A stretch of DNA of 64,000 bases from a virus. The first letter of the stretch is position 1; every line of letters begins with the position of its first letter. Below the pieces are notes generated by a model that was given only the letters and a program-made list of their open reading frames with translations, did not search any database and had not been told where the DNA came from. A program made the translations under genes and the position numbers. The stretch is taken from the IMG/VR virus record IMGVR_UViG_3300048074_000065; one strand, written 5' to 3'. This document shows positions 15,112 to 33,689 of the stretch, piece by piece.

Positions 15112-15113
15112 CC

Positions 15114-15142
15114 TTGCATATAATCCCTGTGTATGCTATACT
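15114..15142 (+). promoter_or_regulatory. sigma70-type promoter, TTGCAT-17-TATACT, at the entry of the glycosylation island
   Basis: Exact 17-nt spacer. It begins 3 nt after the portal stop. Confidence 0.6.
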
Positions 15143-15171
15143 GATTCACAACTGGTCAAAAGAGGACCCTC

Positions 15172-15414
15172 ATGAACGACAAAGACACCCAGTCTCTACT
15201 CGCTGTCTTGGACCGCATCGCCCTCGCGTTGGAAAAGATGTCTAACACGCCCGTGTTCGTGAACGTCCCTGGCGAATGGGCACAAGAACAAATCCAACGT
15301 ATGGCGGACTCTTATCCTACGCCCCATTCGACGATTGTTTTTGTCTCTCCGGATCAGGAAAAACTCTCGCAGATCATTCACCAAGAAGTCGCAAACATTC
15401 TCAAGGCGCTGTAA
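15172..15414 (+). CDS. hypothetical protein (80 aa)
   Basis: ORF track with an AAGAGGA RBS. Confidence 0.55.
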   Translation: MNDKDTQSLLAVLDRIALALEKMSNTPVFVNVPGEWAQEQIQRMADSYPTPHSTIVFVSPDQEKLSQIIHQEVANILKAL

Positions 15415-15415
15415 C

Positions 15416-16183
15416 ATGAAATTCGCGTTGGGCTTTCAATTCCTGAATGAAGCGTCCTGGCTGCGTCTGCACCTGCCTGTGATCCTGCAATCCAGCAGAA
15501 TTGACGGTGTAGTGGCCGTGGACGGCGGCAGCACCGACAATAGCCGCATCGTCATCCTGGGTTTATGCGCGAAACACAAGATCGAAGTTCATCTGTTTAC
15601 TCGTGCCTGGGATTGGGACTTCTCCAAGCAGCAGAACTTCGTGGTAGAACGCTGCGAAGAACTGGGCTACGACGCCTATTTCAAGTGGGACCCGGACGAG
15701 TTGCTGTGGCCGCGTCACATCGACGCCATCGCGGGCCTGCTGCGCGAGTACAAGGTGGTCATCACCCCGCGCTACAACTTCAGCGAAGACCGCCAGCACT
15801 TCTGCCCCTACCTGTGTCCCGACAAACAACTGCGCTTCGTCCAGTTGAACCAGGGCTTTCGCTGGCATGGCAACCTGCACGCCGGGACGAATGCCTACCA
15901 ACTGTGGCGCGAAGACCCCAACAACACGTCGCCCCGCGCGGTGCGCGACATCATCTTCGTGCCGCACATGCCCATCTACCACTATGAGGGCATCAAGCCG
16001 CTGGCGGAACGCGCACTCAAGTGGCTGAATTATGAGCGGGTGGCGGACGGACTGCCAGCGGTGACGGAACTGCCGCCGGACCATCCGGTGCCCCAGTACC
16101 CGCTGCGTGCGACCATTCCGTTCATGGACCCGCAACCGCTCGACCCCGCCGTGATTGGGCTACATGCCCCGTATGGAGAGTGA
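15416..16183 (+). CDS. GT-A/GT2-like glycosyltransferase (putative)
   Basis: ATG at 15416. Motif VAVDGGSTDNS and a DxD-like WDPDE. Confidence 0.5.
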   Translation: MKFALGFQFLNEASWLRLHLPVILQSSRIDGVVAVDGGSTDNSRIVILGLCAKHKIEVHLFTRAWDWDFSKQQNFVVERCEELGYDAYFKWDPDELLWPRHIDAIAGLLREYKVVITPRYNFSEDRQHFCPYLCPDKQLRFVQLNQGFRWHGNLHAGTNAYQLWREDPNNTSPRAVRDIIFVPHMPIYHYEGIKPLAERALKWLNYERVADGLPAVTELPPDHPVPQYPLRATIPFMDPQPLDPAVIGLHAPYGE

Positions 16184-16186
16184 GAG

Positions 16187-16462
16187 ATGAAGATCAGTGA
16201 TATTCAGAGTCCCCGTAGCACCTACGAACTCGATCTGGCCAAGTTGATCGGGAGTCCGATCATTGAAGTGACGGGTTACCTATCAATGGAGTTTGGAGAC
16301 CCCGTGTTTAAACTTTGCCATATTTACTTCGCTGACGGCACGCACGTGAACGTGGAGGGCGAGCACGATATGCCCTATCTAACGGATAGCGGGATTCACA
16401 GTCCGGCTAATTATAATAGCGAGTTGATGCAGCAACTCTACGACGAAAAGAACGAGGAATAG
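16187..16462 (+). CDS. hypothetical protein (91 aa)
   Basis: ORF track with a GAGTGAGAG RBS. Confidence 0.5.
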   Translation: MKISDIQSPRSTYELDLAKLIGSPIIEVTGYLSMEFGDPVFKLCHIYFADGTHVNVEGEHDMPYLTDSGIHSPANYNSELMQQLYDEKNEE

Positions 16463-16463
16463 C

Positions 16464-16571
16464 ATGTCTGCCTTCCTGTTCCGCTTCTGGCGCTTCGGCG
16501 TGACCCGCGCGTACTTCTATCTGCTCGGCACCTGGAAACATCTGATTTGGAGACTGTGGTGGAAACAATGA
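16464..16571 (+). CDS. 35-aa aromatic/hydrophobic peptide (not in the ORF track)
   Basis: Sequence MSAFLFRFWRFGVTRAYFYLLGTWKHLIWRLWWKQ. ATGA overlap with the next gene. Confidence 0.35.
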   Translation: MSAFLFRFWRFGVTRAYFYLLGTWKHLIWRLWWKQ

Positions 16572-16801
16572 GCACCGATGAACGATATACGCTGGAAGGC
16601 GTTTTGGGGCGTTTGCAACAAGAGAAAGAATGGGCTGATCAAGCGTATTCCCTGCTGAAACTCATTTCGGGTTCGGAATGGGCCAACTCGGAGTTTAATC
16701 CTACCGTAATCCAAGCGGCGCGATCTATAGCTGATATTGTGGCCTATCTCGATCTCAAAATCTTCGAGTTCGAGCGCGCGATTCTGGAGGATAAAAAATG
16801 A
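16568..16801 (+). CDS. hypothetical protein (77 aa)
   Basis: ATG at 16568. ATGA overlap with the dehydrogenase gene. Confidence 0.5.
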   Translation: MSTDERYTLEGVLGRLQQEKEWADQAYSLLKLISGSEWANSEFNPTVIQAARSIADIVAYLDLKIFEFERAILEDKK

Positions 16802-18132
16802 CGACTCTCTCGGTCGTAGGACTCGGTAAACTCGGTTCCCCCCTGCTGGCGGTGCTCGCCAACGCAGGCTTCTCCGTGATTGGCGTGGATACGGATGAGG
16901 CGAAGGTCGCAGCGATCAACGCGGGGAAAGCGCCGGTCGAAGAGACGGACTTGCAGGAGTGGCTGGATGGGCTAAAGGGCACGCATTACTATAAGCCTAA
17001 ATTCTCGGCCACCACCGACTTGCGCCAAGCCGTGCTGGACTCCGACACGACGTTCGTCATCGTACCCACGCCCAGCGGGCTGGACGGTGGCTTCGTGCTG
17101 GATTACCTGCTGCCGGTGATGACGGAGATCGGTCACGCCTTGCGCGATGCCGAACATTATCACGTGGTTGTGATTACCAGCACGGTGATGCCCGGACAAA
17201 CCGCCGAGTGTGGAGCGGTCCTGGAAAGTATCAGCGGCAAGAAGTTGGGCGACCATTTCGGGTTGGTGTATTCCCCGACCTTTATAGCCCTAGGTAGTGT
17301 CATCAGAAATCTCACCCAGCCATACTATGCGGTCATCGGAACGGATGATGGGCGAGCCGAGTTTGCGGTCGGTGACATCTATAACAAGATCATCGTGAAT
17401 GGCGCGTCAGTCAATCGGGCCTCACAGATCAATGTCGAAGTCGCCAAGATCGCGCAGAATGCGTTTCTGGCCATGAAGATGGCGTTTGCCAACGACTTGG
17501 GACGGTTGTGCGAGTATCTGCCCGGCGCGAACGCTGATGTGGTCCTGGGACTGCTGGGGCAAGACCTCCGCATTGGCGCTCTCAATCTCACAGCGGGCAC
17601 GGCGGTGGGCGGGCCATGTCTGCCACGGGACTCGCGGGCGCTGGAGCAGGTTTACCAGCGGGCAGGCGTTCCAAAGACAGCGTGCTTATCCTTACGGGAG
17701 TTGGTAGACATCATGAACGACGCGACGACGGAACATCTATGGCGTATCGTGGAGAAGGAAGCGGGCGACGAGGGCGTGGTCGGCGTGCTGGGGTTAGCGT
17801 ACAAGCCCGGTACCTCGGTCTGCGAAGAGTCTGCCAGCCTGGACCTGATAGACCACCTGCTGATGAACCCTCACCGCCGCGTGGTGGTCTACGACCCGCT
17901 GGCGATGGATGAGGCGCGCAAGGAACTGGGGTGCGCGGTCGAGTATGCGGATAGCCCAGAGGATTGCGTGGCTAAGTCGGATGTCGTGGTGCTGATGTTC
18001 CCCGATGCCGAGCTAGTTCCCGTGAATGCCTACACGCGCGAGAAAACCCTCGTGGACCCCTGGCGTGCGGCGCAACCGCCTCTGACCGAATCGGTGTTGT
18101 TCAAGTACATTCCGCTGGGGGTGGGGCAATGA
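16798..18132 (+). CDS. nucleotide-sugar 6-dehydrogenase, closest by eye to GDP-mannose 6-dehydrogenase (AlgD-like)
   Basis: N-terminal GLGKLG Rossmann motif. Blocks TTDLRQAVLDSDTTFVIVPTPS and HVVVITSTVMPG. The catalytic block GGPCLPRDSRAL matches my memory of AlgD (GGSCLPKDVRAL). Confidence 0.75.
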   Translation: MTTLSVVGLGKLGSPLLAVLANAGFSVIGVDTDEAKVAAINAGKAPVEETDLQEWLDGLKGTHYYKPKFSATTDLRQAVLDSDTTFVIVPTPSGLDGGFVLDYLLPVMTEIGHALRDAEHYHVVVITSTVMPGQTAECGAVLESISGKKLGDHFGLVYSPTFIALGSVIRNLTQPYYAVIGTDDGRAEFAVGDIYNKIIVNGASVNRASQINVEVAKIAQNAFLAMKMAFANDLGRLCEYLPGANADVVLGLLGQDLRIGALNLTAGTAVGGPCLPRDSRALEQVYQRAGVPKTACLSLRELVDIMNDATTEHLWRIVEKEAGDEGVVGVLGLAYKPGTSVCEESASLDLIDHLLMNPHRRVVVYDPLAMDEARKELGCAVEYADSPEDCVAKSDVVVLMFPDAELVPVNAYTREKTLVDPWRAAQPPLTESVLFKYIPLGVGQ

Positions 18133-18527
18133 GCAACCATTATGTGTATATGGACGGCGAACCCTTCAGCGGTGCAGTCCTGGAACCTCCTACCCTGACC
18201 GCCGAATATATAGCGGGAGAGGATATTCGGGCGGGGGACATCGTGGGGCGGTATCCGCATCGTCGCGATCTCAAGGTATGGCGTATGCACAACCCCACCC
18301 GCACCGAGCGACTGTTGAAATTCCTGCGACGCGGAGGTCCGTTGCAATTCGCGGGCATTGCACAGCATGACGTAGAAAAGAACGAACAACTCACCGTCAT
18401 TGTCAAAACGGGCACCCTGACTATGGCGGTCAAGAAGTCGATCTATGCCCAACCGGGCATTGACGAACGCACGCCCATCGGCTATGTGGATGAAAACGGC
18501 CATGTCATCATAGGGAAGAAGCCATGA
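18129..18527 (+). CDS. hypothetical protein (132 aa), possibly a DUF2190-like beta fold
   Basis: ATGA overlap. The pattern AGEDIRAGDIVG...FAGIAQHDVEKNEQLTVIVKTG loosely resembles the decoration protein at 31055. Confidence 0.5.
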   Translation: MSNHYVYMDGEPFSGAVLEPPTLTAEYIAGEDIRAGDIVGRYPHRRDLKVWRMHNPTRTERLLKFLRRGGPLQFAGIAQHDVEKNEQLTVIVKTGTLTMAVKKSIYAQPGIDERTPIGYVDENGHVIIGKKP

Positions 18528-19495
18528 TGCGAGCACTGGTCACAGGCGCAGGCGGGTTCATCGGCAGCCACTTGGTCGAGTACCTGAAGGCCAAGGGCTA
18601 CTGGGTACGCGGCGTCGATAAGAAGTACCCGGAGTTCTCTGACTCTGCCGCCGACGAGTTCCTGCTGCTAGACCTTACCTACCCCTTGGCGGCCACCGAA
18701 GCGCTGGCGGGCGGGTTCGATGAAGTCTACGCGCTGGCGGCGGAGATGGGCGGCATGGGCTATATCAGTCAGCAGGGAGCGTACATCCTGCACCAGAACG
18801 CGCTCATCAACCTCAATACGATTGAGGCGGCGCGGCACGCCAAAGTCGGTCGTTACCTGTACACGTCGAGCGCGTGCGTGTATCCAGGCTTCAAACAGAC
18901 GACCCTGGACGCCGCCCCCCTCAAGGAGAGCGATGCGCTTCCGGCATGGCCCGACACCGAGTATGGCTGGGAGAAGTTGTACGCCGAGACGGTGGCGTTG
19001 GCCTATGCGCGGCAGTATGGCATGACGGTGCGCATCCCGCGTTTCCATAATTGCATGGGGCCTAAAGGGGCGTGGATAGGCGGGCGTGAGAAAGCGCCTG
19101 CCGCCTTGTGCCGTAAGATAGCGACGGCCAAACTAGAGGGGCAGAACCCCGTCAAGATCGAGGTCTGGGGTGACGGCACGGCCACGCGCTCCTTTATATA
19201 TATAGACGACTGCCTGGAAGGCGTCTACCGCCTCATGCACAGCCACTACCCTGCTCCGCTCAACATCGGCAGCGACCGCGCCATCTCGATCAACGAGCTG
19301 GCGTATGCGATTGCACGGATTGCAGGCGTGGGCATCGAGCTGGTCCATGTGGAGGGGCCGGTGGGCGTGCAGGGGCGTAACTCGGACAATACACTGGCGA
19401 AAGCGGTGCTGGACTGGGAACCGCAACGCTCGCTGGATGGCGGGCTGGAATTGACGTACAAGTGGATAGAGGAGCAGGTGAAGGCGACCCTATGA
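18524..19495 (+). CDS. extended SDR NAD-dependent epimerase, GDP-mannose 3,5-epimerase-like
   Basis: TGAGGFIGSH and YGWEKLYAE (YxxxK). RIPRFHNCMGPKGAWIGGREKAPAALCRK matches the GME block RFHNIYGPFGTWKGGREKAPAAFCRK. Confidence 0.7.
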   Translation: MMRALVTGAGGFIGSHLVEYLKAKGYWVRGVDKKYPEFSDSAADEFLLLDLTYPLAATEALAGGFDEVYALAAEMGGMGYISQQGAYILHQNALINLNTIEAARHAKVGRYLYTSSACVYPGFKQTTLDAAPLKESDALPAWPDTEYGWEKLYAETVALAYARQYGMTVRIPRFHNCMGPKGAWIGGREKAPAALCRKIATAKLEGQNPVKIEVWGDGTATRSFIYIDDCLEGVYRLMHSHYPAPLNIGSDRAISINELAYAIARIAGVGIELVHVEGPVGVQGRNSDNTLAKAVLDWEPQRSLDGGLELTYKWIEEQVKATL

Positions 19496-20082
19496 CGACC
19501 TGTGCGATAGATGTAGGCGCGCATCGCGGCGAAGTGATGCTGCCCTATGCGTTCGCCCACCCCGCCACCCCGGTGTACGCTTTCGAGCCGGACCCGCGCG
19601 CCTGGCGGTTCGTGTATGGTGCGGCACCCAACTACCATCTCATCCCGGCAGCCGTGGGGGATGTCGAGGGCTGGGCATGGCTCTATCTGAATCGGGTGCC
19701 GGGCTGCTCGTCGCTGCACCGTCTGGACCTGGACGGGCTGACGCGCTGGCCGGAGGGCTTCAACTTCGCGGAGGTCGGGCGGGTGCTGACCCAGGTGCTA
19801 CGGCTGGACACGTTCATGGCGCAGGTGGGCATTGACCGCGTGGCACTGCTCAAACTGGACGCGCAAGCGCATGGATTGCACGTGCTGCGCGGGTTGGGCG
19901 ACCGGCTCGAAAGTGTGGAACGTATCACGATTGAGGTCAACGTGTCGGAGGCGCACACCTATCAGGACGAGTATGGCCCGCGCGACGTCTGCGAGCTGCT
20001 GGAACCAGCGGGCTTCAAGATGACAGACTATGATAGCCAAACGGCGGGCTACGAGGAGAACTGGACCTTTGAACGCCTCTGA
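19492..20082 (+). CDS. FkbM-family SAM-dependent methyltransferase
   Basis: Motifs IDVGAHRGE...YAFEPDPRAW...LLKLDAQAH. ATGA overlap. Confidence 0.65.
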   Translation: MTTCAIDVGAHRGEVMLPYAFAHPATPVYAFEPDPRAWRFVYGAAPNYHLIPAAVGDVEGWAWLYLNRVPGCSSLHRLDLDGLTRWPEGFNFAEVGRVLTQVLRLDTFMAQVGIDRVALLKLDAQAHGLHVLRGLGDRLESVERITIEVNVSEAHTYQDEYGPRDVCELLEPAGFKMTDYDSQTAGYEENWTFERL

Positions 20083-20110
20083 TTCGGTATATGTTCTTAT
20101 CTACAGTCGG

Positions 20111-20335
20111 GTGTTCAGCAAATATGAGATCGAAACAACTCCTTGTGGTGTTTTCACCGAACACCAGCTGGCGGTTCAAGCTATTCCATTGAAAATTGTT
20201 TCATGGGAATGCACAGTTGTTGGCCATATATCAATGGACATAGCTAGGGATGTGAATGGAAATCTATGGACCATAATGGACTGTCAGAAAAATCTTTATT
20301 ACATCCCGCCCTATTATCAAGCGGAGGGTGAATGA
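20111..20335 (+). CDS. hypothetical small protein in an AT-rich insert (start uncertain)
   Basis: Open frame from the track ORF 20030-20335. GTG at 20111 is the first start after the upstream stop, and no clear RBS is present. Confidence 0.3.
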   Translation: MFSKYEIETTPCGVFTEHQLAVQAIPLKIVSWECTVVGHISMDIARDVNGNLWTIMDCQKNLYYIPPYYQAEGE

Positions 20336-21270
20336 AGCGCGTCTACATCCACGCCGACCCTGGCGGAACGTATCTCGGCAATGGCGGCTTCATCTGCCTC
20401 TCCGAACTGGGCACGCGCCTGGAGGGGATGGGCTATTCCGTCGCCTTCTTCGACCCCACCGACAGCCTGACGATGGGGCGTTGGGCGTGGACGGGCTACT
20501 GTGCGCCCGCGCTGACCAGTTGGGAGAGCGTGTGCCATCAGCCGGACGAGAACTACGTGGTGATCACGACATGGCTGTACTCGTGGCTCAACGACTTGAA
20601 TAGACACCCACAACTCTTTTCACACCTACGGTACTGGTGTTCCGGAGAAACGCTCCGCGAGGACTCCCGCTATGATCCCACGCGCGTATGGTTGCGAGAG
20701 CATTGCCCCACCATTGCGATTAACAACCCCACCTTAGCCCCCTGGTATGAGGATTTGGGGCTTGACGCCAAGTGGATGTGGACTAACTGGGTGCGCTCGT
20801 TGTTTCACGCCAACCCGAAAGAACGCATTCCCGGTCGTATCGGCGTGCAGCCCGACAATCACAGTTATCAGATGTTGGTGGCACGGTTGAGTGAGGCGTT
20901 TGGCATGGACAACGTACTGGTCTGTTCTGGCAGCCAGGCTGAAGTGGCGACCAAGATGCGCACGTGCGACCGTTACCTCTTTTGGAACGATTTGTGGCCG
21001 CTGGTGTGTGGCAGTGGGGAGAGTTTCGGCCTGAGTCTCTTTGAGGCGATGGCCAGCGGGTGTCTGTGCATCACCCGTGCCCACTGCGGCAATCTGATGA
21101 CCGAGGACGTGGTGAATCGCCATCAGGACTTGGATGAGGCGATCTACCGGCTGAAATATATCCAGGACTACGGAGATGTTTACCGGAAGCAGCAGCAACT
21201 CTTCGTTGAGCAGGAGTATCGCTGGGACGGTGCGCGGGAGCTGGCAGTGAGGGAATACATCGATGGGTGA
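20332..21270 (+). CDS. GT-B (GT4-like) glycosyltransferase
   Basis: EX7E motif in GSGESFGLSLFEAMASGCLCI. Confidence 0.65.
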   Translation: MKRVYIHADPGGTYLGNGGFICLSELGTRLEGMGYSVAFFDPTDSLTMGRWAWTGYCAPALTSWESVCHQPDENYVVITTWLYSWLNDLNRHPQLFSHLRYWCSGETLREDSRYDPTRVWLREHCPTIAINNPTLAPWYEDLGLDAKWMWTNWVRSLFHANPKERIPGRIGVQPDNHSYQMLVARLSEAFGMDNVLVCSGSQAEVATKMRTCDRYLFWNDLWPLVCGSGESFGLSLFEAMASGCLCITRAHCGNLMTEDVVNRHQDLDEAIYRLKYIQDYGDVYRKQQQLFVEQEYRWDGARELAVREYIDG

Positions 21271-22081
21271 GCCGAAGCGGTGTACGAGGTGCGGAACAGA
21301 ATATCCAGCGACAACTGAGTATTTTTATCGACGCGCGGGTGTGGCGGACGGTCTTAAAAGTCATTGCAAGAATTGTGAACGCGAACAAAGCCGTCAATAT
21401 CGCGTTGAGCACGTAGAAGAAAGGCGTGAATGCCTACGTCAATATCGCGCTGCACATGCAGAGGAATTGCGCGAATCCTACCGACACTATCATGCCGAGC
21501 ACGCGAGTGAAAGAAATGAAGCCAGCCGTATTTATAAACTAGAACACCCAGAAGAAATGCATGAATATAGTAGGCGCTACTATGCTGAACACGCTGAAGA
21601 ACGAGGTGAATATGCTCACCGTTACTATGCTGAACATGTAGAAGAACGAGGTGAGTACGCCCGTCGTTACCGTGCCCAACATCCAGATAAAATGCAAGAC
21701 TCCGAACGCCGACGCCGTGCCCGCGAGGCATCCCTTCCTTTTAATTTTTCAACATTCGCGGCAGATCGTGCATTAGAATACTTTCATGGCTGTTGTGCTG
21801 TTTGTGGAAAACCGTTGCGCGATTTATTCGGGGATATTAAACCCCATTTTGATCATTGGATACCGCTCAGCGATCCACGTGAGAATAATCCTGGCACGGT
21901 GACAACCAATATGGTCGGGCTATGCAACAAGTGCAATATGTCTAAGCACGATCACGATCCTATCGACTGGCTTAACATGAAATTTGACCAGCGAAAAGCA
22001 AAGCGGATCATCCAGCGCGTTGAAACCTATTTTGACTGGGTGCGCAGGCAAGATGCTGAAGAAGACAAGGCGGACCAATGA
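21263..22081 (+). CDS. HNH endonuclease with an N-terminal zinc ribbon and seven 15-aa repeats
   Basis: CTRCGTEYPATTEYFY...CKNC. HNH core HFDHWIPLSD...NMVGLCNKCNMSKHD. Lower GC than the flanking genes. Confidence 0.75.
   Translation: MGEPKRCTRCGTEYPATTEYFYRRAGVADGLKSHCKNCEREQSRQYRVEHVEERRECLRQYRAAHAEELRESYRHYHAEHASERNEASRIYKLEHPEEMHEYSRRYYAEHAEERGEYAHRYYAEHVEERGEYARRYRAQHPDKMQDSERRRRAREASLPFNFSTFAADRALEYFHGCCAVCGKPLRDLFGDIKPHFDHWIPLSDPRENNPGTVTTNMVGLCNKCNMSKHDHDPIDWLNMKFDQRKAKRIIQRVETYFDWVRRQDAEEDKADQ
21395..21709 (+). repeat. seven tandem 45-bp (15-aa) repeats, xY(R/Y)AEHxEERxEYxR
   Basis: The best pair is YYAEHAEERGEYAHR and YYAEHVEERGEYARR. Five more degenerate units precede and follow it. 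Confidence 0.8.
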
Positions 22082-23043
22082 GTGAATCTATCATAATCTT
22101 TTCTTCACTTGAAAACTTAAATAGCCAAGGAGACGCCCCGTATAATGGCGGTTATAAACTTCAAAGTATTTGGTGTAAGTTATTGATTAGTAGGGGCCAC
22201 ACCGCCTACCGGATGACCCTGGACGGTCGAGTCATCCCCTGGATGGTCGAACCCGCTCCGGCGATTTCCTACGTCGATGCGGTTCAGATGGTCGAGTCCG
22301 GTCAGCCCGTCAAGGTAGTCACCACCTGGATGGCGGCGACGTTGGCGCTGCAACTTACGCCTCATCCTTGGTTCTATGATGCTGAGATCGCCCACAGCAG
22401 TTCGGGCGCGCACTTCGACGCCCTGAAGCGTTGGATGCCCCAGTTCGGAGGCGTGGCGACCCATGCTCGTCACCAGGCCGCTTGGTATCTGTGCCAATTC
22501 CAGAAGTCTATCCCGATTATTCAGGAGTGGTCCGATACCGACTACTGGTATCCCATTCCTGAGCAGCGTGTGGAGAACAGAGTGGGGTTCATGGTCGAGG
22601 GTCCGCACACGATGGGCCACATCGACATTATGCGGCGCATGTGTCAGGAAAAGGAACTGCCCGTCGAGTTTTACCACGTCCAGGGGTCTGAGCGCGACGT
22701 GATCGACCAACTCCGCTCATGCGATGTATTCCTGGGTATGAACCCCGGCAAACACCCGCTGTGGCTGGAGGGTTGCCCCCGTTCGCAGCAGGAGGCGCTG
22801 CACGCAGGCTGTGTGCTGATCGCGGGCAACGTGTTGGGCAACCTGGAATTTCTGATGGACGGCTACACCGGCTACCTCGTGCCACGTCTCAACCCGCAAG
22901 CGATGGGTGAGCGCCTGATCTGGGCACTCCAGCATCGGCAGCAGATGGAAATCGTGCGCGCACGCGGGACGGACTTCGTGCAGAAGCAGTTCGCGCCAAC
23001 CGAGAGTAAGTATCAGCAGGTGAAGGAGTGGTTGGGACTATGA
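22078..23043 (+). CDS. GT-B (GT4-like) glycosyltransferase
   Basis: EGCPRSQQEALHAGCVLIAG (EX7E) and the motif MDGYTGYLV. Confidence 0.6.
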   Translation: MSESIIIFSSLENLNSQGDAPYNGGYKLQSIWCKLLISRGHTAYRMTLDGRVIPWMVEPAPAISYVDAVQMVESGQPVKVVTTWMAATLALQLTPHPWFYDAEIAHSSSGAHFDALKRWMPQFGGVATHARHQAAWYLCQFQKSIPIIQEWSDTDYWYPIPEQRVENRVGFMVEGPHTMGHIDIMRRMCQEKELPVEFYHVQGSERDVIDQLRSCDVFLGMNPGKHPLWLEGCPRSQQEALHAGCVLIAGNVLGNLEFLMDGYTGYLVPRLNPQAMGERLIWALQHRQQMEIVRARGTDFVQKQFAPTESKYQQVKEWLGL

Positions 23044-25817: not shown

Positions 25818-25830
25818 GGTGAGAACTAAA

Positions 25831-26103: not shown

Positions 26104-26779
26104 CATCGTGAGTATAGTCCTACCCAGCATGAACCGTCCCGACCGTCTGGTCCACTGCGTCCAGCGCATCCTGGAGACGACCCCCTACCGTCCGCTGGAA
26201 CTCATCGTGGTGATCGACGTGGATACCGAGAGTCGCGACCGTGTGCTGGCGCTCAACGCCTCGCCCGTGATCGTGCTGTTCAACGAGACCCGTAAGGGGG
26301 CGGTAGCCTGCTGGAACCAGGGTCTCAAAGCAGCCAACGGTGATATCCTGTGCTTCTTCAACGATGACTGTGAGCCGGAGTCGGGGTGGCTGGAAGCAGC
26401 GTTGAAGGCGCATCGGGAGCAGTTGGGCGGGTATGGACTCGTCGGTTTCTCGGATGGATACCAAGACGGCAATATCTTATCCGTTCAATATTTATTCGAT
26501 AGAGAATTCTGCATTGACTATCTCGGAGGAGTAATGGCCTATCCAGTATACGAGTTCGCGTGGAATGATACAGAGAGTAATGAGCGTGCTAAGTTGTCGG
26601 GCCATTTCTTTTGGTGTAAAGACGCGGTTGTGCAGCATAGGCATTGGTCAAGAGACGGCGGGAAGATGGATAAGATGAATGAGGAAAATATGAAGATGCA
26701 AGGAAGGGATGGTTATATTTACTACGCAAGGGAGAAACAGGGATTTCCTGACAACTTCATTCCTGTGATTCGGCGATGA
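26096..26779 (+). CDS. GT2-family glycosyltransferase with a compositionally foreign C-terminal third
   Basis: SIVLPSMNRPDRL and FFNDDCEPE. GC content drops sharply from about 26460. Confidence 0.6.
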   Translation: MNDIVSIVLPSMNRPDRLVHCVQRILETTPYRPLELIVVIDVDTESRDRVLALNASPVIVLFNETRKGAVACWNQGLKAANGDILCFFNDDCEPESGWLEAALKAHREQLGGYGLVGFSDGYQDGNILSVQYLFDREFCIDYLGGVMAYPVYEFAWNDTESNERAKLSGHFFWCKDAVVQHRHWSRDGGKMDKMNEENMKMQGRDGYIYYAREKQGFPDNFIPVIRR

Positions 26780-26821
26780 ATACAACTATCTATTATGGTA
26801 TAATTAAGTTTGACAATATAT

Positions 26822-26850
26822 ACCCCGGCAACGCTCTAACGTTCCGGGGT
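26822..26850 (+). other. GC-rich hairpin between the GT2 and HNH genes
   Basis: ACCCCGG pairs with CCGGGGT, with an inner pairing of AACG to CGTT. No T-tract follows. Confidence 0.4.
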
Positions 26851-26876
26851 GCGAGACTGTCTGTAAGGAGACGTCT

Positions 26877-27455
26877 GTGGATGATTATACCCCTACCAAA
26901 CGCTGTAGCAAATGCCACTGCGATTTTCCCGCCACTGATGAGTTCTTTTCTAAAGGGAAAAGATACAAGGATGGTTTGCGCGGACAATGCAAAACATGCC
27001 GTGCGGAATATAATCACGAATACAGGGTAAAAAATATCGAAAGAATAATTAACAGGGATCGTGATTACAGAGACAAGAATCGAGAATTAACCAGAGAGAG
27101 GGGAAGGGCGCATTATTATCGTCACCAGGAAGAAGTCAGAAGAAAAATGAACGCTCGTAGAAAAACTGAACATTACAGGATAATGAGAACGGCTGAAGCG
27201 CATCGTCGGAGAGCTAGAAAGCTGAATGCCACGGGGGTGCATTCTCGTGCTGATATATCCCTGATTTACCAACAGCAAAAGGGAAAATGTTGGTGGTGTG
27301 GCAAAAAATTAAACGAAACATATCATGTAGATCATCGCATTCCACTATCTAGAGGAGGAACTAATTGGCCAGACAATCTTGTGTTGACGTGTCCGCATTG
27401 CAATCTGAGCAAGAATAACAAAATGCCTCACGAATGGAATGGGAGGTTACTGTGA
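26877..27455 (+). CDS. HNH endonuclease, paralog of the 7424 and 21263 genes
   Basis: GTG start. CSKCHCDFPATDEFF...CKTC. Core CWWCGKKLNETYHVDHRIPLSRGGTNWPDNLVLTCPHCNLSKNN. AT-rich gene. Confidence 0.8.
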   Translation: MDDYTPTKRCSKCHCDFPATDEFFSKGKRYKDGLRGQCKTCRAEYNHEYRVKNIERIINRDRDYRDKNRELTRERGRAHYYRHQEEVRRKMNARRKTEHYRIMRTAEAHRRRARKLNATGVHSRADISLIYQQQKGKCWWCGKKLNETYHVDHRIPLSRGGTNWPDNLVLTCPHCNLSKNNKMPHEWNGRLL

Positions 27456-28156
27456 TGCGCGGTCAACTCTGTAGTGGAATGCTGGTCGATCTGGACGACG
27501 CCACCGCGCGCTATGGCGGCTCGTGGCAGGGCTACGCGGACGACTTGCTCCAGGCGTATGACCAGGGCGCGATCTGGGACTTCTGGACGCACGTCCAGGC
27601 CCTCGCTGAGCCGGTCGTGCTGGATGTCGGCGCGAATACCGGGAGCTTCTGTCTGCTGGCGAAGTTTCATCCGGGGATGCGCGTGTGGGCATTCGAGCCG
27701 AACTACGAAGTCCGCCAGGTGCTCGAACACAACGTCGCGCTGAATGAACTGGAGACGCGCGTCAAGGTGCTGCCCTACGCGGCACTGGATTACGTGGGCA
27801 GTGCGCTGTTGACCGTGCCCAACGACGATACGCTGTCGGGGCTGTCGTTTATCGACATACGACCTGCCAATCATATCTGTACGGTGAAAGAAGTGATGGT
27901 GCTTACCCTGGATGTGGTCACCTGTTCAGAGGGTATTACACACGTCGATGCCATCAAGATCGACGTGGAAGGCCGCGAGGAAGCGGTGCTGCGGGGTGGG
28001 GCAGAGATGATCCGGCGTGACCATCCCTTCCTATTCACTGAAGCGACCAATGTACAAAAACAACGCTCCCTGTTAGAATCCTGGGGATATACCGTGAACG
28101 CAGGACCACACGACATTCAATCGGTCTATGAAGCAAAAGGAAACTACTATGGCTAA
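27455..28156 (+). CDS. FkbM-family SAM-dependent methyltransferase
   Basis: VLDVGANTGSFCLLA, WAFEPN and IKIDVEGREEAVL. GGGAGG RBS and a TGATG overlap. Confidence 0.65.
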   Translation: MRGQLCSGMLVDLDDATARYGGSWQGYADDLLQAYDQGAIWDFWTHVQALAEPVVLDVGANTGSFCLLAKFHPGMRVWAFEPNYEVRQVLEHNVALNELETRVKVLPYAALDYVGSALLTVPNDDTLSGLSFIDIRPANHICTVKEVMVLTLDVVTCSEGITHVDAIKIDVEGREEAVLRGGAEMIRRDHPFLFTEATNVQKQRSLLESWGYTVNAGPHDIQSVYEAKGNYYG

Positions 28157-28616
28157 GACAAAACGAGGCGTTCGGAAACCTCAAAGCACGATTGGGCGCG
28201 CGATTGATCTGGAAACCATCGTGCCCCAGCCCATCTCCATCGAGATCATCTACGACGAGAAAGAGTGGGGCAGCACCAAGGCCCGCCGCAAAGCCGAACA
28301 GCGCTCGCTGCGCACGGGAGAGCCGGAAGTTTTGCAGACCGTGCCCGTCGCCCGCAAGGTGCCCGTGCTGCTCATCACCCACCCCGCCACCTGGCAAGCC
28401 GAACACCGCTTCGTGCTGGCCCAAGCGCTGCGGGATATTCTTAAGGAACATCGGGTCAGCGGTGAACTGTACTTCGAAGTCGGCGAGACGGACGACCTGA
28501 TCGAAGGGACCATTGACTTCTGCATCAAGTTCCTGGCGACCTACGGCATGGACGCCGAACGAGCGGTGCGCGAAGTGCCGTGCGTGAACCCGGCTGACCC
28601 GCGCGCCATCTGGTAA
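28149..28616 (+). CDS. hypothetical protein (155 aa)
   Basis: ATG at 28149. Operon context only. Confidence 0.5.
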   Translation: MAKTKRGVRKPQSTIGRAIDLETIVPQPISIEIIYDEKEWGSTKARRKAEQRSLRTGEPEVLQTVPVARKVPVLLITHPATWQAEHRFVLAQALRDILKEHRVSGELYFEVGETDDLIEGTIDFCIKFLATYGMDAERAVREVPCVNPADPRAIW

Positions 28617-29341
28617 TGGACCTGCTCACGATCTTTACCTGCCCGACCCAGTTAGGGTCGCGGCTGACCATCGAGGCGAATGCCCAGCGGTCCTGGCGGC
28701 GGTTGATCCCGTCGCCCTGCGTCCGCTGGGTCCAGGCGTCCACCGTGGCCAAGGACGAGTTTGGCACGCCGCTGGTCAACAGTGTCTTGGCGCAGGGGGA
28801 GGCGCTGGCGTATACCGAGGTAGTCGCCTACGTCAATACCGACATTATTCTGCTGCAAAACTGGCTGCGAGCACTCAAGACCGTGCTCCAGCGCTTCGAT
28901 GGCCCGTTCCTGATGGTCGGTCAGCGCTACGACCTGGACCTGAGCACCAAACTGGCGTTCGAACGGGGCTGGCAAGCCAAGTTCGAACGCCAGGTGCGCC
29001 AGTCGGGGGTGCTGCACCAGGACGCGGGCATCGATTACTTCGCATATCGAAAGGGCATGTGGGGCGACCTGCCGCCCTTCTCCCTGGGGCGCTGGTCCTG
29101 GGATAACTGGCTGGTATGGCGGGCGTTGAACCTGGGCGTGCCCGTCATTGATGCGACGGCTGTAGCGACCGCCATCCACCAGAACCACGACGGGTGTCAC
29201 CGGGGCGTATATGCAGAGGTGCAGCGTGAGCGGAACGCGGCGTTGGTTGGTAGTACGGGCGGACGCCTATGCCGCCTTCGCGATGCCACTCACGTGCTGA
29301 CGGAACGCTACAAAGTCGTGTCAAAAGTTGTCGTTCATTAA
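28616..29341 (+). CDS. putative glycosyltransferase-like enzyme, paralog of the 25065 gene
   Basis: See the shared motif list under 25065-25817. Confidence 0.4.
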   Translation: MDLLTIFTCPTQLGSRLTIEANAQRSWRRLIPSPCVRWVQASTVAKDEFGTPLVNSVLAQGEALAYTEVVAYVNTDIILLQNWLRALKTVLQRFDGPFLMVGQRYDLDLSTKLAFERGWQAKFERQVRQSGVLHQDAGIDYFAYRKGMWGDLPPFSLGRWSWDNWLVWRALNLGVPVIDATAVATAIHQNHDGCHRGVYAEVQRERNAALVGSTGGRLCRLRDATHVLTERYKVVSKVVVH

Positions 29342-29391
29342 CGGAACCTTCGCGTACCATTGTTTGTTTGCTATCGTTGCGATATACAGCA

Positions 29392-29420
29392 TTGACATAC
29401 CATTGGTGAAGCGCTAAGAT
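29392..29420 (+). promoter_or_regulatory. consensus sigma70-type promoter, TTGACA-17-TAAGAT
   Basis: Exact -35 element and 17-nt spacer. The predicted +1 is near 29427. Confidence 0.65.
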
Positions 29421-29426
29421 GAAAGT

Positions 29427-29624
29427 GGGAACTATGGATCGTGAACTTGATCCAGAGCAGTTGATGGAACTGCGACGTGCGGTGATCATGCTGCTGCGAG
29501 TGTTGGACAAGGTGCTGGGGTTACCCCAAACCATCCCGCCCAAAGAAGAACGACACCCACGAAAGTAACCTAGCCCCCGGTTAACCTGCGGCTGAAGGGT
29601 CCGACGACCTTCAGCCGTTTTTTG
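29427..29624 (+). ncRNA. short (~197 nt) promoter-to-terminator transcript; contains a 44-codon ORF (29434-29568)
   Basis: Bounded by promoter 29392-29420 and terminator 29590-29624. The ORF MDRELDPEQLMELRRAVIMLLRVLDKVLGLPQTIPPKEERHPRK would have only about 7 nt of leader. Confidence 0.3.
29590..29624 (+). terminator. strong intrinsic terminator immediately upstream of the head genes
   Basis: GGCTGAAGG(GT)-CCGACG-(A)CCTTCAGCC followed by GTTTTTTGTG. It ends about 20 nt before the 29644 ATG. Confidence 0.75.
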
Positions 29625-29643
29625 TGTTGAGGAGGGATGGCCT

Positions 29644-31041
29644 ATGCCGTTCATGGTGGTGAAGAAAGAAAACGAGTGGTGCGTCTACACCCAGGATGCC
29701 GATGGCAAGCCGACCGGTGAGGAACACGGATGTCACGACTCGGAGAGCGGCGCGCAGGAGCAGATGAAGGCGCTGTATGCCAACGTGCCGGAAGCGCGCG
29801 AAGCGGTCGAGGAAGCCACTCAGGAAACACCTCGCCTCATTCTGCGCGAGTTCAGCATCACCGATCTGCGTGCGAAAGAGCCGGACATTCCGACGGCTCC
29901 GGGCATCGACCTGGCGGCACTCACCAAAGGCGACGCCGAGCCGTATTTCATCACCCTGGCGGTCGGTGAAATCGGACGGGTCTCGTCCAATGGGCTGGAT
30001 TATGACGAGACGCTGGTCAAGGGCATCGTCGAACAAATCAACACCAAACATCCCGGCGGTATCATGGGGCACATCAAGCCCGAAGAGCGGTCCACCGCGT
30101 TCCCTCCGCCCGAAGTGTACTGGATTGGGGCCAAGATGGTAGGCGAAACGGCCTACGCCAAAGCCTACGTCCCGCCCGGCAAAGCCAAAGACTATGTGTG
30201 GCGGCAGAAAGCCATCATGGGCAAAGTGGCCACCAGCATCTTTGGACCGTTCACTGCGCAGATGAAGTCGGACGAAAAGAAATCCTGGAAGGCGCAGGGG
30301 TTCGAGTTGGAGTCGCTGGACCTTGCCCCTTGGGAGCGCGCAGCCTTACGGTTAACCGGCACGTTCCACGTGACCAGTCAAATGGAAGCGGGGATCGTAC
30401 CTGAATTTACTTCGACATCCTGGGACTTGCTTACGGGTGTGCCCGTCACCCAGGACATAGCTCAGGAGGTCACTATGCCTGACAAAGCGGCAGTGCTGGC
30501 CGAGTTGACGGCGGACGAGCTTCAAACCGTCCCCGCCTTCGCCGCATTGCGCGAGACGATTGTCGCCGGGGTGACGCAGGAACAGGAATCCCGCGTTGCC
30601 GAACTGACTCAGCAGATCGCGGGCAAGGATGCGCGCATTGCTGAACTAGAGGCCGATAACACGGTCAAAACCCAACTGGTCGCGGAATTTCAGCGGGGCA
30701 AGTTTGACGCCGATCTGAAAGCGCACATCGCTGAACTCACCGCCTGGAATACCAACGGCAAGCCGGAAGCGACCGAGAAGTTGAACGCGCTGCGGGCCGC
30801 CATCTACACCCTGGCCCAGTCCAAACTGGGGGGCGTGGTGATGGAGATGGAGCAGGCCAAACCGCAACTGGAAGAGCTGATGACGGGCGACCTGAAGGTC
30901 CTGGTCGAAATGACGCGCGACAACCTCGCCGGTCCCGCCATTCGGATCGGGGGGGTGGGGCGCGAAGGCGTACAGAAACCCGTGGAACCCACCGAGGAAG
31001 ATTCCAAGAAGGCTGTTCAGTCCTTTGGGCTGACGGCATAG
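29644..31041 (+). CDS. prohead protease/scaffolding fusion protein (putative)
   Basis: GAGGAGGG RBS. N-terminal globular part (…SSNGLDYDETL…GGIMGHIKPEE…) and C-terminal coiled coil (…VAELTQQIAGKDARIAELEADN…). It precedes the decoration and capsid genes. Confidence 0.45.
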   Translation: MPFMVVKKENEWCVYTQDADGKPTGEEHGCHDSESGAQEQMKALYANVPEAREAVEEATQETPRLILREFSITDLRAKEPDIPTAPGIDLAALTKGDAEPYFITLAVGEIGRVSSNGLDYDETLVKGIVEQINTKHPGGIMGHIKPEERSTAFPPPEVYWIGAKMVGETAYAKAYVPPGKAKDYVWRQKAIMGKVATSIFGPFTAQMKSDEKKSWKAQGFELESLDLAPWERAALRLTGTFHVTSQMEAGIVPEFTSTSWDLLTGVPVTQDIAQEVTMPDKAAVLAELTADELQTVPAFAALRETIVAGVTQEQESRVAELTQQIAGKDARIAELEADNTVKTQLVAEFQRGKFDADLKAHIAELTAWNTNGKPEATEKLNALRAAIYTLAQSKLGGVVMEMEQAKPQLEELMTGDLKVLVEMTRDNLAGPAIRIGGVGREGVQKPVEPTEEDSKKAVQSFGLTA

Positions 31042-31054
31042 GTAGGAGGACACT

Positions 31055-31483
31055 ATGGGAAGCATTACGGTTACCAGCAAAGATGTCTGCTACCTGGATG
31101 CGCCGTATCACCCGCCGATGAACGTCATTGCGGGCGCGGCCATGACAGTGGGCTACGCGGTCTATCTGGACTCCAGTGGCTACGCCCAGCACGCTGACGC
31201 GGACTTGTCGGCGGTTGGGGCGCGGGTCATTGGCATTTTGGTCGCCTCGAAAGATGGCGAAACGTCGGTTACCTCTGGCGACCGATGTTCGATTGCGGTC
31301 TGGGGTCGCGTCTCTGGCTACGCCAGCATGACCCCCGGCGCTCCGGTGTACATTTCGAAAACGGTTGGACGCCTGGATCAAACGGCCCCGACCGGCGGCG
31401 CGTATCCCAATGCGATTGGGCGCGCGGAGTCGGCGACGACCATCTTCATCAACTGGAACGCCACCGACGCCACCAGCGTCTAA
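31055..31483 (+). CDS. head decoration/cement protein, DUF2190-like (putative)
   Basis: 142 aa, between the scaffold and the major capsid gene. Pattern AGAAMTVGYAVYLD...VIGILV...GDRCSIAVWGRV. Confidence 0.5.
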   Translation: MGSITVTSKDVCYLDAPYHPPMNVIAGAAMTVGYAVYLDSSGYAQHADADLSAVGARVIGILVASKDGETSVTSGDRCSIAVWGRVSGYASMTPGAPVYISKTVGRLDQTAPTGGAYPNAIGRAESATTIFINWNATDATSV

Positions 31484-31495
31484 CAGGAGGACGAT

Positions 31496-32632
31496 ATGGG
31501 AACAACTCTGGGTTATGAATCCATTCTGAATCTCGCCCTCCCGACGGGTGTAGATGGAACGAGACTGGCGCAGTGGGAACTGGCGACCGGTGAAACCTTC
31601 CAGCAGTTCACGCAGCGCTTGGCGACGGCCCTGGCCGCCGTCAATGCGGAGTTCGAGCGCGACTGGGGCCACCTGTTCTTCACGACCGAAGAGCAGATGA
31701 TGGAATACCGCAACGGCGGGACCCCGGCGGCCTCGGCGGAAGTGACCGACATCGACGTGGTAGACCCCACGCACGAGACAACCATCGGCCACCAGATCGC
31801 CCTGCCGGTCTATCAGGAAATGATCGGCGGCACGGATCGCTGGTTCATGGATGCCCGCACGGTGCAGTTGACCACCGACATCGGGGGGAAGATCGACAAC
31901 TTGCGGAAACGCTTCGAAACCGATCTGCTCAACCGGGCGTTCAAAACGACCGAAAGCGCCGTCGGCACGTCGGGCTACAACGTGCCCTGGGTGTACTCGA
32001 CCACCGGCACGGTGGACTATGTGCCCCCGGCCTATAACGGCGAAACGTTTGCCAGCACCCACTCGCACTTCCTGGGCGTAGACAGCAATAGCTACACCTT
32101 TGCTGACATGCTGAACCAGATGGCGGAAACCATCCAGGAACACGGCCACGATGGCACGTACTTCGCGATTGTGTCGCGCACAGACATCAGCAGCTACCGC
32201 GATCTGGCGGACTTCATCCGTCCCCAGGATCAAATGATCACGCACATCGACCGCGCCAGCGAAACCAGCGGGCCGAACTACTATACGACCAACCAACTGC
32301 CCAAGGGCGTCATCGGCGGTTTCTCCAGCGACTATGGCGAAATCCAGCTCTACGCGACGGCGCGCGTACCCACCGGCCACGCCTTCCTGACCAAGAGCTA
32401 CGGGCAGCAGTCTCCCAAGAACCCGTTTGCCGTCCGGATTCGTTCGGCGGCGCGCGGCGGCAAGGGCTTCGGCTGCTACATCGCAGCGGTCACCGGGGAC
32501 AGCACCATCAGCCCCATCAAGCTCATCCGTATGGAGTTTGAGTACGGGTTGGGCCTGGGTGCGGATCGCACCAATGGCGTTTCGGCCTATCGCGTAGCAG
32601 GCGGAACTTACGCTGATCCTACGATCTCGTAA
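31496..32632 (+). CDS. major capsid protein (putative)
   Basis: 378 aa with a CAGGAGGA RBS. Positioned after the scaffold and decoration genes and followed by a hairpin. Confidence 0.6.
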   Translation: MGTTLGYESILNLALPTGVDGTRLAQWELATGETFQQFTQRLATALAAVNAEFERDWGHLFFTTEEQMMEYRNGGTPAASAEVTDIDVVDPTHETTIGHQIALPVYQEMIGGTDRWFMDARTVQLTTDIGGKIDNLRKRFETDLLNRAFKTTESAVGTSGYNVPWVYSTTGTVDYVPPAYNGETFASTHSHFLGVDSNSYTFADMLNQMAETIQEHGHDGTYFAIVSRTDISSYRDLADFIRPQDQMITHIDRASETSGPNYYTTNQLPKGVIGGFSSDYGEIQLYATARVPTGHAFLTKSYGQQSPKNPFAVRIRSAARGGKGFGCYIAAVTGDSTISPIKLIRMEFEYGLGLGADRTNGVSAYRVAGGTYADPTIS

Positions 32633-32634
32633 TC

Positions 32635-32655
32635 AGAGGGGCCTGGTGCCCCTCT
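32635..32655 (+). terminator. hairpin after the capsid gene (weak terminator candidate)
   Basis: AGAGGGGC-CTGGT-GCCCCTCT. The downstream sequence CTTCACC is only weakly T-rich. Confidence 0.35.
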
Positions 32656-32672
32656 CTTCACCGAGGGACTGA

Positions 32673-33689
32673 ATGATCGAGAGTCGCGGTTTTAACTACC
32701 TCCACTTCCGCAAATGGGCCTGCGATGGCTACAGTTATTACGCCATGTCGCAGATCAAAGCGCTGGCTCAGGTCGGTGCCAAGGTGTATCCCGGACTGCT
32801 CATGGAATTGGATGAGACGCCGGGCTGGTATAACTACCTGCGCGGGTTGGATATGACCCGCCTGAATGTGGTGCTTGCTCCCCCGCATGACCTGAAAGCC
32901 ATGCCGGGTCGGGTCTTCTCCAGCACCATGTACGAAAGCACCCGCATCCCCGACGACTGGGCGACCCATGTCAACACCAAAGCCGAACGCCTGATCGTCC
33001 CGTGTCAATGGTGTGCGGACGTATTTCGCGATAACGGCGTAACGACCCCTATTCACATCATTCCGGGGGGCGTCGATCCGGTGGAGTTTCCCGCCACGGG
33101 CATCCCCCTCCCGACCAACCGCCCTTACACCTTTCTGGCGTTTGGGGACCGGGGCAGCCGTAAGGGGCAGGACCTCGTGTGGGAAGCCTTTTACAACGTG
33201 TTCGGGGATAACCCGGACGTGCGCCTGATTGTCAAGACCCGGCAGGGTGGCCTCCCCTGGCTCTCGACGGCCAAGGGCGACCGGCGGGTGACCATCTGGC
33301 GCGAGGACGTGCCCCACATGGCGGACGTGTATGCGCATGTGGACTGCGTGGTCAATCCAACCAAAGGCGAAGGCTGGGGGCTGTTTCCACGGGAGGCGGC
33401 CTGCACCGGGAAACCGGTCATCTGCACCGCGTTTGGCGGAACCCTGGACGGCATCGAACACTGGGGCATTCCCATCGTCAATTATAAGATGGTCCCAGCG
33501 GCCATCCTGGGCGGCGGTGAGTGGGCCATGCCCGATGTCGAAGAAGTCGGCACGCACATGCGCTGGTGTTACGACCACCGCGAGGAAGCATGGCAGAAGG
33601 GTCAGCAAGCGGCGGTGTGGCTGCGTGAGCACCAGACCTGGCAGCATTCGGCCCAGCAGTTGATGACCTTGATTGAGGAGTGGGGCTAA
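32673..33689 (+). CDS. GT-B (GT4-like) glycosyltransferase directly downstream of the capsid gene
   Basis: EX7E in KGEGWGLFPREAACTGKPVI and the block FLAFGDRGSRKGQDLV. Confidence 0.65.
   Translation: MIESRGFNYLHFRKWACDGYSYYAMSQIKALAQVGAKVYPGLLMELDETPGWYNYLRGLDMTRLNVVLAPPHDLKAMPGRVFSSTMYESTRIPDDWATHVNTKAERLIVPCQWCADVFRDNGVTTPIHIIPGGVDPVEFPATGIPLPTNRPYTFLAFGDRGSRKGQDLVWEAFYNVFGDNPDVRLIVKTRQGGLPWLSTAKGDRRVTIWREDVPHMADVYAHVDCVVNPTKGEGWGLFPREAACTGKPVICTAFGGTLDGIEHWGIPIVNYKMVPAAILGGGEWAMPDVEEVGTHMRWCYDHREEAWQKGQQAAVWLREHQTWQHSAQQLMTLIEEWG

Follow-up and report, generated by a model that had tools for sequence, protein, structure and literature searches.

We analysed a 64-kb stretch of DNA, IMG/VR virus record IMGVR_UViG_3300048074_000065 (hereafter the window), which represents most of a tailed-phage genome and whose positions serve as coordinates unless another locus is named. 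Between its portal gene and a scaffold-like gene lies a 14.5-kb island (15111-29644) encoding sugar-nucleotide enzymes, seven glycosyltransferases and three methyltransferases, and an eighth glycosyltransferase, of type GT4, is encoded directly after the capsid gene, with glycan genes flanking the scaffold, cement and capsid genes at both ends. We estimate a probability of roughly 55% that this block encodes a self-contained cytoplasmic pathway, expressed late, for glycosylating the virion. A virion acceptor is the best supported because of the location of the genes in the head operon, the fixation of the GT4 gene beside the capsid gene, the gene content of relatives, the lack of export genes and the precedent of mycobacteriophage Corndog.

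The left border of the island is the portal gene (13384-15111; phrog_104), whose product matched annotated portals at 1e-9 in tblastn searches and whose homologues in relatives carry PF05133. The right border is a gene for a scaffold-like protein or a protease-scaffold fusion (29644-31041; phrog_3219, function unknown); it owes the scaffold label to its position alone and is kept ahead of the cement and capsid genes in all relatives. It is followed by genes for the capsid cement or decoration protein (31055-31483; PF22758) and the major capsid protein (31496-32632; phrog_3990, 37 homologues), and after these come the GT4 gene, connector genes, the tail tube gene, chaperones and the tape measure gene. 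All of these genes, like those of the island, are on the plus strand. Island genes are all co-oriented with the terminase-to-tail operon, many of them overlap by 4 bases, and no convincing terminators were found between them. That a sugar-activation, glycosyltransferase and methyltransferase island sits inside the head module had been proposed in a first-pass annotation made by a model from the letters and predicted open reading frames (ORFs); it is confirmed here by Pfam, PDB, homologue and fold matches together with the flanking structural genes.

A search with the capsid protein yielded 37 relatives, down to 40% identity, and gene context was read at loci L009, L010, L011, L019, L020 and L021 and at eight loci from GTDB genomes. 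The closest relative, IMG/VR UViG 3300032396_000154 (loci L001/L004), has 83-87% protein identity and carries the block in the same order, without its HNH genes and with other small filler ORFs. A GT4 gene lies directly 3' of the capsid gene in each of the 10 relatives whose capsid is at least 42% identical and whose downstream DNA is present (L001/L002, L009, L010, L011, L019, L020, L021, L024, L025 and L026). Capsid and GT4 identities to the window were 83/92, 49/59, 46/46, 45/42, 46/42, 47/41, 43/33 and 42/29%; the divergence of GT4 (92 to 29%) parallels that of the capsid (83 to 42%). GT4 is absent in two relatives with 30-32% capsid identity.

Comparison of the portal-to-scaffold block across relatives, suggested by the first-pass annotation as a check, revealed a site, 0.3 to 15.4 kb in size, at which cassettes are exchanged. 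The gap measures at most 0.3 kb in L023, 1.15-1.55 kb in L021, L024 and L026, 4.0-5.7 kb in L019, L010 and L009, 14.5 kb in the window and 15.4 kb in the closest relative, L001/L004. Depending on the relative, it holds genes for a GT2 enzyme, a hexapeptide acyltransferase, Methyltransf_11, an FkbM methyltransferase, or a dehydrogenase plus an epimerase. Two loci, L024 and L026, instead carry extra genes for a GT2-like enzyme, a sulfotransferase and a methyltransferase behind GT4 and not before the scaffold gene (sulfotransferase PF03567, Methyltransf_11 and GT2-like at L026 12162-13686 and L024 12557-13342); with the sulfotransferase, some members of the lineage may make sulfated glycans. One methyltransferase family was found at either of the two flanking sites, depending on the phage.

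Locus L022, from a metagenome-assembled genome (MAG) of Anaerolineae with 47% capsid identity, carries a large cassette syntenic with that of the window, and in GC and GC3 the island enzymes agree with the structural genes. These two observations indicate that the large cassette is old in the lineage, and on the same grounds recent horizontal acquisition of the whole island was rejected. The basal occupant of the gap appears in most relatives as a family of ~360-aa proteins encoded after the portal gene (L005 10230-11303, L006 8671-9759, L010 3873-4970 and others), with no Pfam match and no detectable copy in the window or its close relative. Its position prompts the guess that this family corresponds to minor head proteins such as Mu F and SPP1 gp7.

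Two island genes encode enzymes of sugar-nucleotide metabolism. The product of the first (16798-18132) is a nucleoside diphosphate (NDP)-sugar 6-dehydrogenase of the UDP-glucose dehydrogenase (UGDH)/AlgD family (PF03721, PF00984, PF03720), scoring 272.8 bits against TIGR03026 (cut-off, 189.8) and matching 3gg2 at 1.6e-48 and AlgD (1mfz) at 7.5e-45 in the PDB. Since it is as near to UGDH as to the GDP-mannose dehydrogenase AlgD, similarity does not resolve its substrate; the earlier description as AlgD-like holds for the 6-dehydrogenase activity, and AlgD itself is not favoured. The second product (18524-19495) matched plant GDP-mannose 3,5-epimerase (GME; PDB 8sg0 and 2c59) at 1e-86 over its full length (residues 2-320), with SSACVYP, YGWEK and GGREKAPAA aligned to the SSAC, YGxEK and GGREK motifs. 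The residues known from the Arabidopsis enzyme are the catalytic Cys of SSAC, those of the YxxxK motif and the Lys of GGREK. By this alignment the protein is a genuine GDP-mannose 3,5-epimerase, in line with its first designation as GME-like. Between the two genes lies a 132-aa ORF (18129-18527) without a Pfam or PHROG match, which has just 33% identity in the close relative, where neighbouring genes have 65-86%.

The three methyltransferases are those originally listed, two of the FkbM family and one class I S-adenosylmethionine (SAM) enzyme. FkbM-1 is encoded at 19462-20082 (PF05050, 3.3e-14; TIGR01444) and the RfbT-like FkbM-2 at 27434-28156 (PF05050, 1.3e-16; PF05575, 1.3e-5; TIGR01444). 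The class I enzyme (23218-23820; PF13578 [Methyltransf_24], 1.7e-16; PF04989, 1e-3) is of the CmcI/TylF-like sugar O-methyltransferase type. Next to the FkbM-2 gene, a conserved 162-aa cassette ORF (28128-28616) has homologues in L001, L020 and L022 and no family match.

The count of seven island glycosyltransferases plus an eighth after the capsid gene was upheld by Pfam, homologues and motifs and, for one paralogous pair, by structure prediction. Three are firm by Pfam: a GT-B (GT4) enzyme (22078-23043; PF00534, 2.1e-9) with a 39% homologue in the Anaerolineae MAG locus L022, a GT2 enzyme (26012-26779; PF00535, 7.5e-18) for which the ATG at 26096 is the likely start, and the GT4 enzyme after the capsid gene (32673-33689; PF13692, PF20706, PF00534 at 4e-10; phrog_2170). 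The sole PDB sequence match of the last was a weak one (5e-4) to chlorovirus B736L, and a tblastn search of GenBank phages with it matched Streptomyces, Rhodococcus and Arthrobacter phages. Three others are assigned through homologues and motifs. The divergent GT2 enzyme at 24196-25068 (motifs DxDGS and QDDD) has homologues with PF00535 that JGI annotates as GT2; the GT-B (GT1/GT4-like) enzyme at 20332-21270 (PF00534 at 2.5e-4 and 21 bits, below cut-off) is paralogous to that at 22078 and has a homologue in L011; and the GT-A/GT2-like enzyme at 15416-16183 (PF00535 at 0.0021 and 18 bits, below cut-off) has DGGSTD and DPDE motifs conserved in L004 and L020, its profile giving weak PDB matches to SunS (0.005) and GmaR (0.05).

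The remaining two, at 25065-25817 and at 28616-29341, the latter being the last cassette gene ahead of the scaffold-like gene, are paralogues with 32% identity and belong to a family with 314 homologues, none of which has a Pfam domain. Neither the single 28616 sequence nor the family profile gave a significant PDB sequence match, and fold comparison alone succeeded. An AlphaFold2 (AF2) model built from a 48-sequence alignment, of which 25065 is a member, reached a pLDDT of 93.9 and matched the fucosyltransferase WrtF, K4CP and SpsA in Foldseek (probability 1.00, TM-scores 0.5-0.55), as well as GT-A transferases among viral models. D76, D140 and D163 are invariant in the alignment, and an NADI motif is present. 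The family is thus predicted from its model to have a Rossmann-like GT-A fold, and its conserved residues include an acidic motif of the DxD type. At L011 4278-6254 we observed a 658-aa fusion of a 28616-family GT-A domain with an NDP-sugar dehydrogenase, which indicates a functional link between this family and the dehydrogenase.

These enzymes suggest how the pathway might operate. The phage would convert host GDP-mannose into activated sugars, the epimerase yielding GDP-L-galactose or GDP-L-gulose and the 6-dehydrogenase a uronic acid. Eight soluble glycosyltransferases could then build an oligosaccharide stepwise and directly on virion proteins during head assembly, and the three SAM-dependent methyltransferases would O-methylate its sugars. 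The GT4 adjoining the capsid gene would be the conserved core enzyme and may attach the first sugar, with the portal-to-scaffold genes forming an exchangeable cassette that would determine the type of glycan. The acceptor that we prefer, as a hypothesis drawn from sequence comparison, would be the cement protein, at its exposed, Ser-rich C-terminal tail. Beyond the last conserved strand the window protein has ATDATSV, against P[AST]S[SA] or SNS in relatives, and a Ser-rich tail is present in all 13 members whose capsid is at least 42% identical and in neither of two relatives without GT4.

Several observations weigh against virion glycosylation. Every acceptor assignment is indirect, and the correlation involving the cement tail is weak, since it relies on two outgroup sequences only and is confounded by phylogeny. 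The capsid C-terminus NPTIS was considered as an acceptor signature and rejected, as it also occurs in L027 and L028, which lack GT4; the C-termini of tail tube proteins share a common T/A-rich ...IPP motif and were uninformative. The same enzyme classes also build O-antigens and exopolysaccharides, and the 28616 family is common in Chloroflexota chromosomes. The cassette proteins have no detectable homology to the Corndog enzymes, and the tblastn search of GenBank phages with the core GT4 matched no Mycobacterium phage. Lastly, a missing exporter is indecisive because a soluble glycosyltransferase of a phage can act on lipid-linked polymers whose export is left to the host; TarP, a prophage enzyme, is such a soluble glycosyltransferase and modifies a wall polymer exported by its host. 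The step from the lack of an exporter to a cytoplasmic acceptor, taken in the first-pass annotation, is weakened accordingly, while its premise that export genes are not found stands.

The search for export genes bears on the main rival explanation, remodelling of the host cell envelope. Here the phage enzymes would assemble or modify a lipid-linked polymer, either a wall polysaccharide or an exopolysaccharide, to be completed by a priming enzyme and exporter of the host, and the result would be receptor masking that leads to superinfection exclusion or spares progeny from adsorbing to debris. We consider this explanation unlikely, although several points favour it. The enzyme classes are typical of O-antigen and exopolysaccharide clusters, there are weak NCBIfam matches to exopolysaccharide transferases, and FkbM-2 is RfbT-like; the 28616 family is widespread on bacterial chromosomes, including those of Chloroflexota; and L024 lies within a 273-kb Aggregatilineales contig, in a lineage with probable prophages. 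Moreover, cyanophage S-SCSM1 carries a GDP-mannose 3,5-epimerase and many glycosyltransferases, and its authors read these GDP-sugar and glycosyltransferase clusters as modifying the host cell wall or lipopolysaccharide (PMC9602691). However, a hydropathy scan of all window ORFs found none with more than one hydrophobic segment, in agreement with the earlier statement that the window has no exporter, priming enzyme or multi-transmembrane protein, and the 71.3 kb examined of the 73.6-kb genome yielded no flippase, polymerase, priming transferase, ABC transporter or Gtr-type membrane protein. An exporter just beyond the window, named in advance as grounds for rejecting a virion acceptor, was not found in the next 7.3 kb. 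Further arguments against envelope remodelling are that the genes lie in the late head operon and not in a moron or lysogeny region, that GT4 keeps its place beside the capsid gene even in deeply diverged relatives, that the Corndog cassette at the equivalent position is reported to act on virion proteins, and that no integrase family was matched among the ORFs with a Pfam scan or a precomputed Pfam record.

The genome covered contains a single multi-segment membrane candidate. It is a 313-aa protein encoded on the opposite strand among replication-side genes (L015 4716-5657, ~1.6-2.6 kb past the right end of the window), with three or four N-terminal hydrophobic segments, a soluble C-terminal part and no Pfam match. 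As an exporter it was rejected, its size and topology being unlike those of Wzx or Wzy.

It is quite improbable that the target is something other than the virion, such as a cytoplasmic protein of the host or phage, a small molecule or a free oligosaccharide, with the head-module site serving merely as a tolerated insertion hotspot. The gap does gather unrelated small ORFs and HNH genes, as an insertion-tolerant site would, and the weak PDB matches of the 15416 enzyme, SunS and GmaR, are peptide- or protein-directed GT2 enzymes with non-virion targets. A hotspot nevertheless leaves unexplained why GT4 is fixed beside the capsid gene in all relatives of at least 42% capsid identity with readable downstream DNA, and nearly every assignable gene at both flanking sites is glycan-related. 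Glycosylation of phage DNA, in which sugars on modified bases would serve restriction evasion and which had been named beside virion proteins as a possible acceptor, is very improbable: although DNA-hypermodifying phage glycosyltransferases are described as diverse (Pyle 2024, as cited in PMC12619734) and two N6/N4 DNA methylase genes lie at 9899-11346, the ORFs scanned against Pfam or with a Pfam record, many small ORFs having no annotation, showed no thymidylate-synthase-like deoxynucleoside monophosphate hydroxymethylase, no TET/JBP dioxygenase and no DNA-base kinase, the genes are in the head module away from replication genes, and eight transferases, three sugar-type methyltransferases and a GDP-L-galactose supply would far exceed known systems.

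Not all island genes belong to the putative pathway. Two HNH homing endonuclease genes, overlooked in the initial inventory and recognised by PF01844, lie on the plus strand at 21263-22081 (also phrog_1035; GC, 0.485; absent from L001/L004) and 26877-27455 (3.5e-11; GC, 0.43; absent from L001). They are paralogous (29% identity), low in GC (0.43-0.49) and absent from the 83-87% relative, and they are mobile insertions outside the pathway. A third HNH gene is present at 7424-7918. About six small island ORFs are non-conserved and low in GC, among them those at 15172-15414, 16187-16801, 20030-20335, 25819-26103 and 26776-27030. They are unrelated to the fillers of the ~85% relative (L004 3144-3851, 6912-7811 and 10520-11259), which indicates fast turnover of filler inside the cassette.

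The "consensus promoter" first assigned to the start of the island was overstated. The element TTGCAT-17-TATACT (15114-15142, plus strand), directly past the portal stop codon and present in one copy in the window, matches the consensus hexamers at 3/6 and 5/6 positions and was not reported by a consensus promoter scan of the window; the close relative has TTGTAA-17-TAGACT at the equivalent position. On this sequence pattern the element may act as a promoter. A second promoter-like site, TTGACA-17-TAAGAT (29392-29420), lies in the 303-bp gap ahead of the scaffold-like gene, which is the largest intergenic gap of the head module.

Upstream of the portal gene, a 180-aa Thr/Ser-rich ORF (12840-13382) separates it from the gene for the large terminase subunit TerL (11404-12837, plus strand; PF17289, PF03237). 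This ORF is 92% conserved in the close relative and absent from distant relatives, where the terminase gene abuts the portal gene; it has no family match, and its single-sequence AF2 model (pLDDT, 37) was unusable. The two adjoining N6/N4 DNA methylase genes (9899-10552 and 10549-11346; PF01555) stand just upstream of the terminase gene, and the first of them matches only the C-terminal part of the PF01555 profile. Farther along, a 945-aa tail protein (40281-43118) contains galactose-binding domains of the F5/8 type C (discoidin) class, suggestive of a carbohydrate as the host receptor, and the tail-distal region also has a metallophosphoesterase gene (44861-45742).

In at least nine collection blocks the capsid gene lies on contigs of 73.5-73.7 kb whose start points differ; the phage therefore has a free genome of ~73.6 kb. 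Megablast gave no DNA match between 22 kb of the window and GenBank phages, and the capsid protein had no tblastn match among them. Relatives were found in MAGs of Anaerolineae (three) and of Aggregatilineales, and since L024 occupies the mid-region of its 273-kb Aggregatilineales contig, the lineage includes probable prophages. Together with the frequency of the Pfam-less 28616 GT-A family in Chloroflexota, these MAGs make a Chloroflexota host likely.

If virion proteins are indeed the acceptors, the fixed and variable parts of the system may have a common explanation. The locus might be a "virion serotype locus", with a fixed core glycosyltransferase linked to the capsid gene and flanking cassettes swapped as in bacterial O-antigen loci, each phage bearing a different complex glycan on its capsid surface, perhaps on the cement protein tail. 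We put this forward tentatively, as a possibility with somewhat less than even chances. Were it true, the window phage would carry a glycan containing methylated L-galactose or L-gulose and a uronic acid, its protein-glycosylation pathway would exceed in size any other self-sufficient one known from tailed phages, and the locus would be evidence for diversifying selection on capsid-surface glycans in nature, outside any antibody context.

To our knowledge, glycosylated virions have been demonstrated in only a few tailed phages, all of them actinobacteriophages, with cassettes of two to four genes. New here are how large and self-sufficient the pathway is, the probable host phylum, the constant pairing of capsid and GT4 genes alongside exchangeable cassettes, and a widespread, uncharacterised GT-A family. 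Should the proposed function hold, virion glycosylation would extend to another host phylum and would include virus-encoded sugar-nucleotide synthesis, GDP-L-galactose among its products, and capsid glycan type would vary between relatives in a serotype-like manner. The core GT4, the cement protein tail and the GT-A family offer testable targets, and the question is relevant to the contacts of phage particles with environmental surfaces, grazers and host envelopes.

Known systems resemble this one in part. The serotype-converting Gtr/Oac modules of prophages need multi-pass GtrA, GtrB and GtrC or a membrane acetyltransferase, are integrase-adjacent and are expressed in lysogeny. The window phage likewise has phage-borne glycan-modifying genes but none of these defining features: multi-pass GtrA/GtrB/GtrC, a membrane O-acetyltransferase and an adjoining integrase were all missing among the ORFs scanned. 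Chlorovirus PBCV-1 and Mimivirus use their own sugar-nucleotide enzymes, cytoplasmic glycosyltransferases and sugar methyltransferases to place an atypical methylated glycan on a structural protein. The likeness to them is one of scale, with no evidence of common ancestry; they are eukaryotic giant viruses with glycosylation genes scattered or in other clusters, whereas the 13 enzymes of the window phage in 73.6 kb are a proportionally larger investment. Cyanophage S-SCSM1 shares the combination of a phage GME with many glycosyltransferases, but it is a T4-like myovirus whose cluster lies outside the head module, with no link to the capsid gene described.

Mycobacteriophage Che8 and other F1 phages have glycans on the C-termini of capsid and tail tube proteins according to papers citing Freeman et al. 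(2023), and there, too, soluble glycosyltransferases of the phage itself are considered to modify virion proteins within the cytoplasm. The Che8 enzymes are encoded near the right genome end and not in the head module, and their acceptor is proven, whereas that of the window phage is deduced from gene context.

The nearest parallel is Corndog (cluster O), whose capsid and tail tube are reported, in papers citing the original work, to be glycosylated. Its gene order runs from the portal gp34 (PF04860) through the Methyltransf_24 protein gp35 (PF13578) and the glycosyltransferases gp36-38 to the prohead protease gp39 (PF04586) and the capsid gp41, so that both phages have a PF13578 methyltransferase and soluble glycosyltransferases co-oriented between the portal and the protease or scaffold and capsid genes. 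The arrangement in the window, first described as unusual, therefore has a counterpart in position, with one methyltransferase and three glycosyltransferases, and is unusual chiefly for being far larger. BLASTP of Corndog gp33-41 against the window proteins returned nothing below E = 0.04, and on this comparison the two systems are analogous, not orthologous. The Corndog cassette has 4 genes in 2.75 kb and no sugar-nucleotide synthesis, and its host phylum is Actinomycetota; the window island, in a phage probably of Chloroflexota, is about five times larger at 14.5 kb, is hypervariable among relatives, and combines seven glycosyltransferases, three methyltransferases, a dehydrogenase and a GME with a separate core GT4 after the capsid gene.

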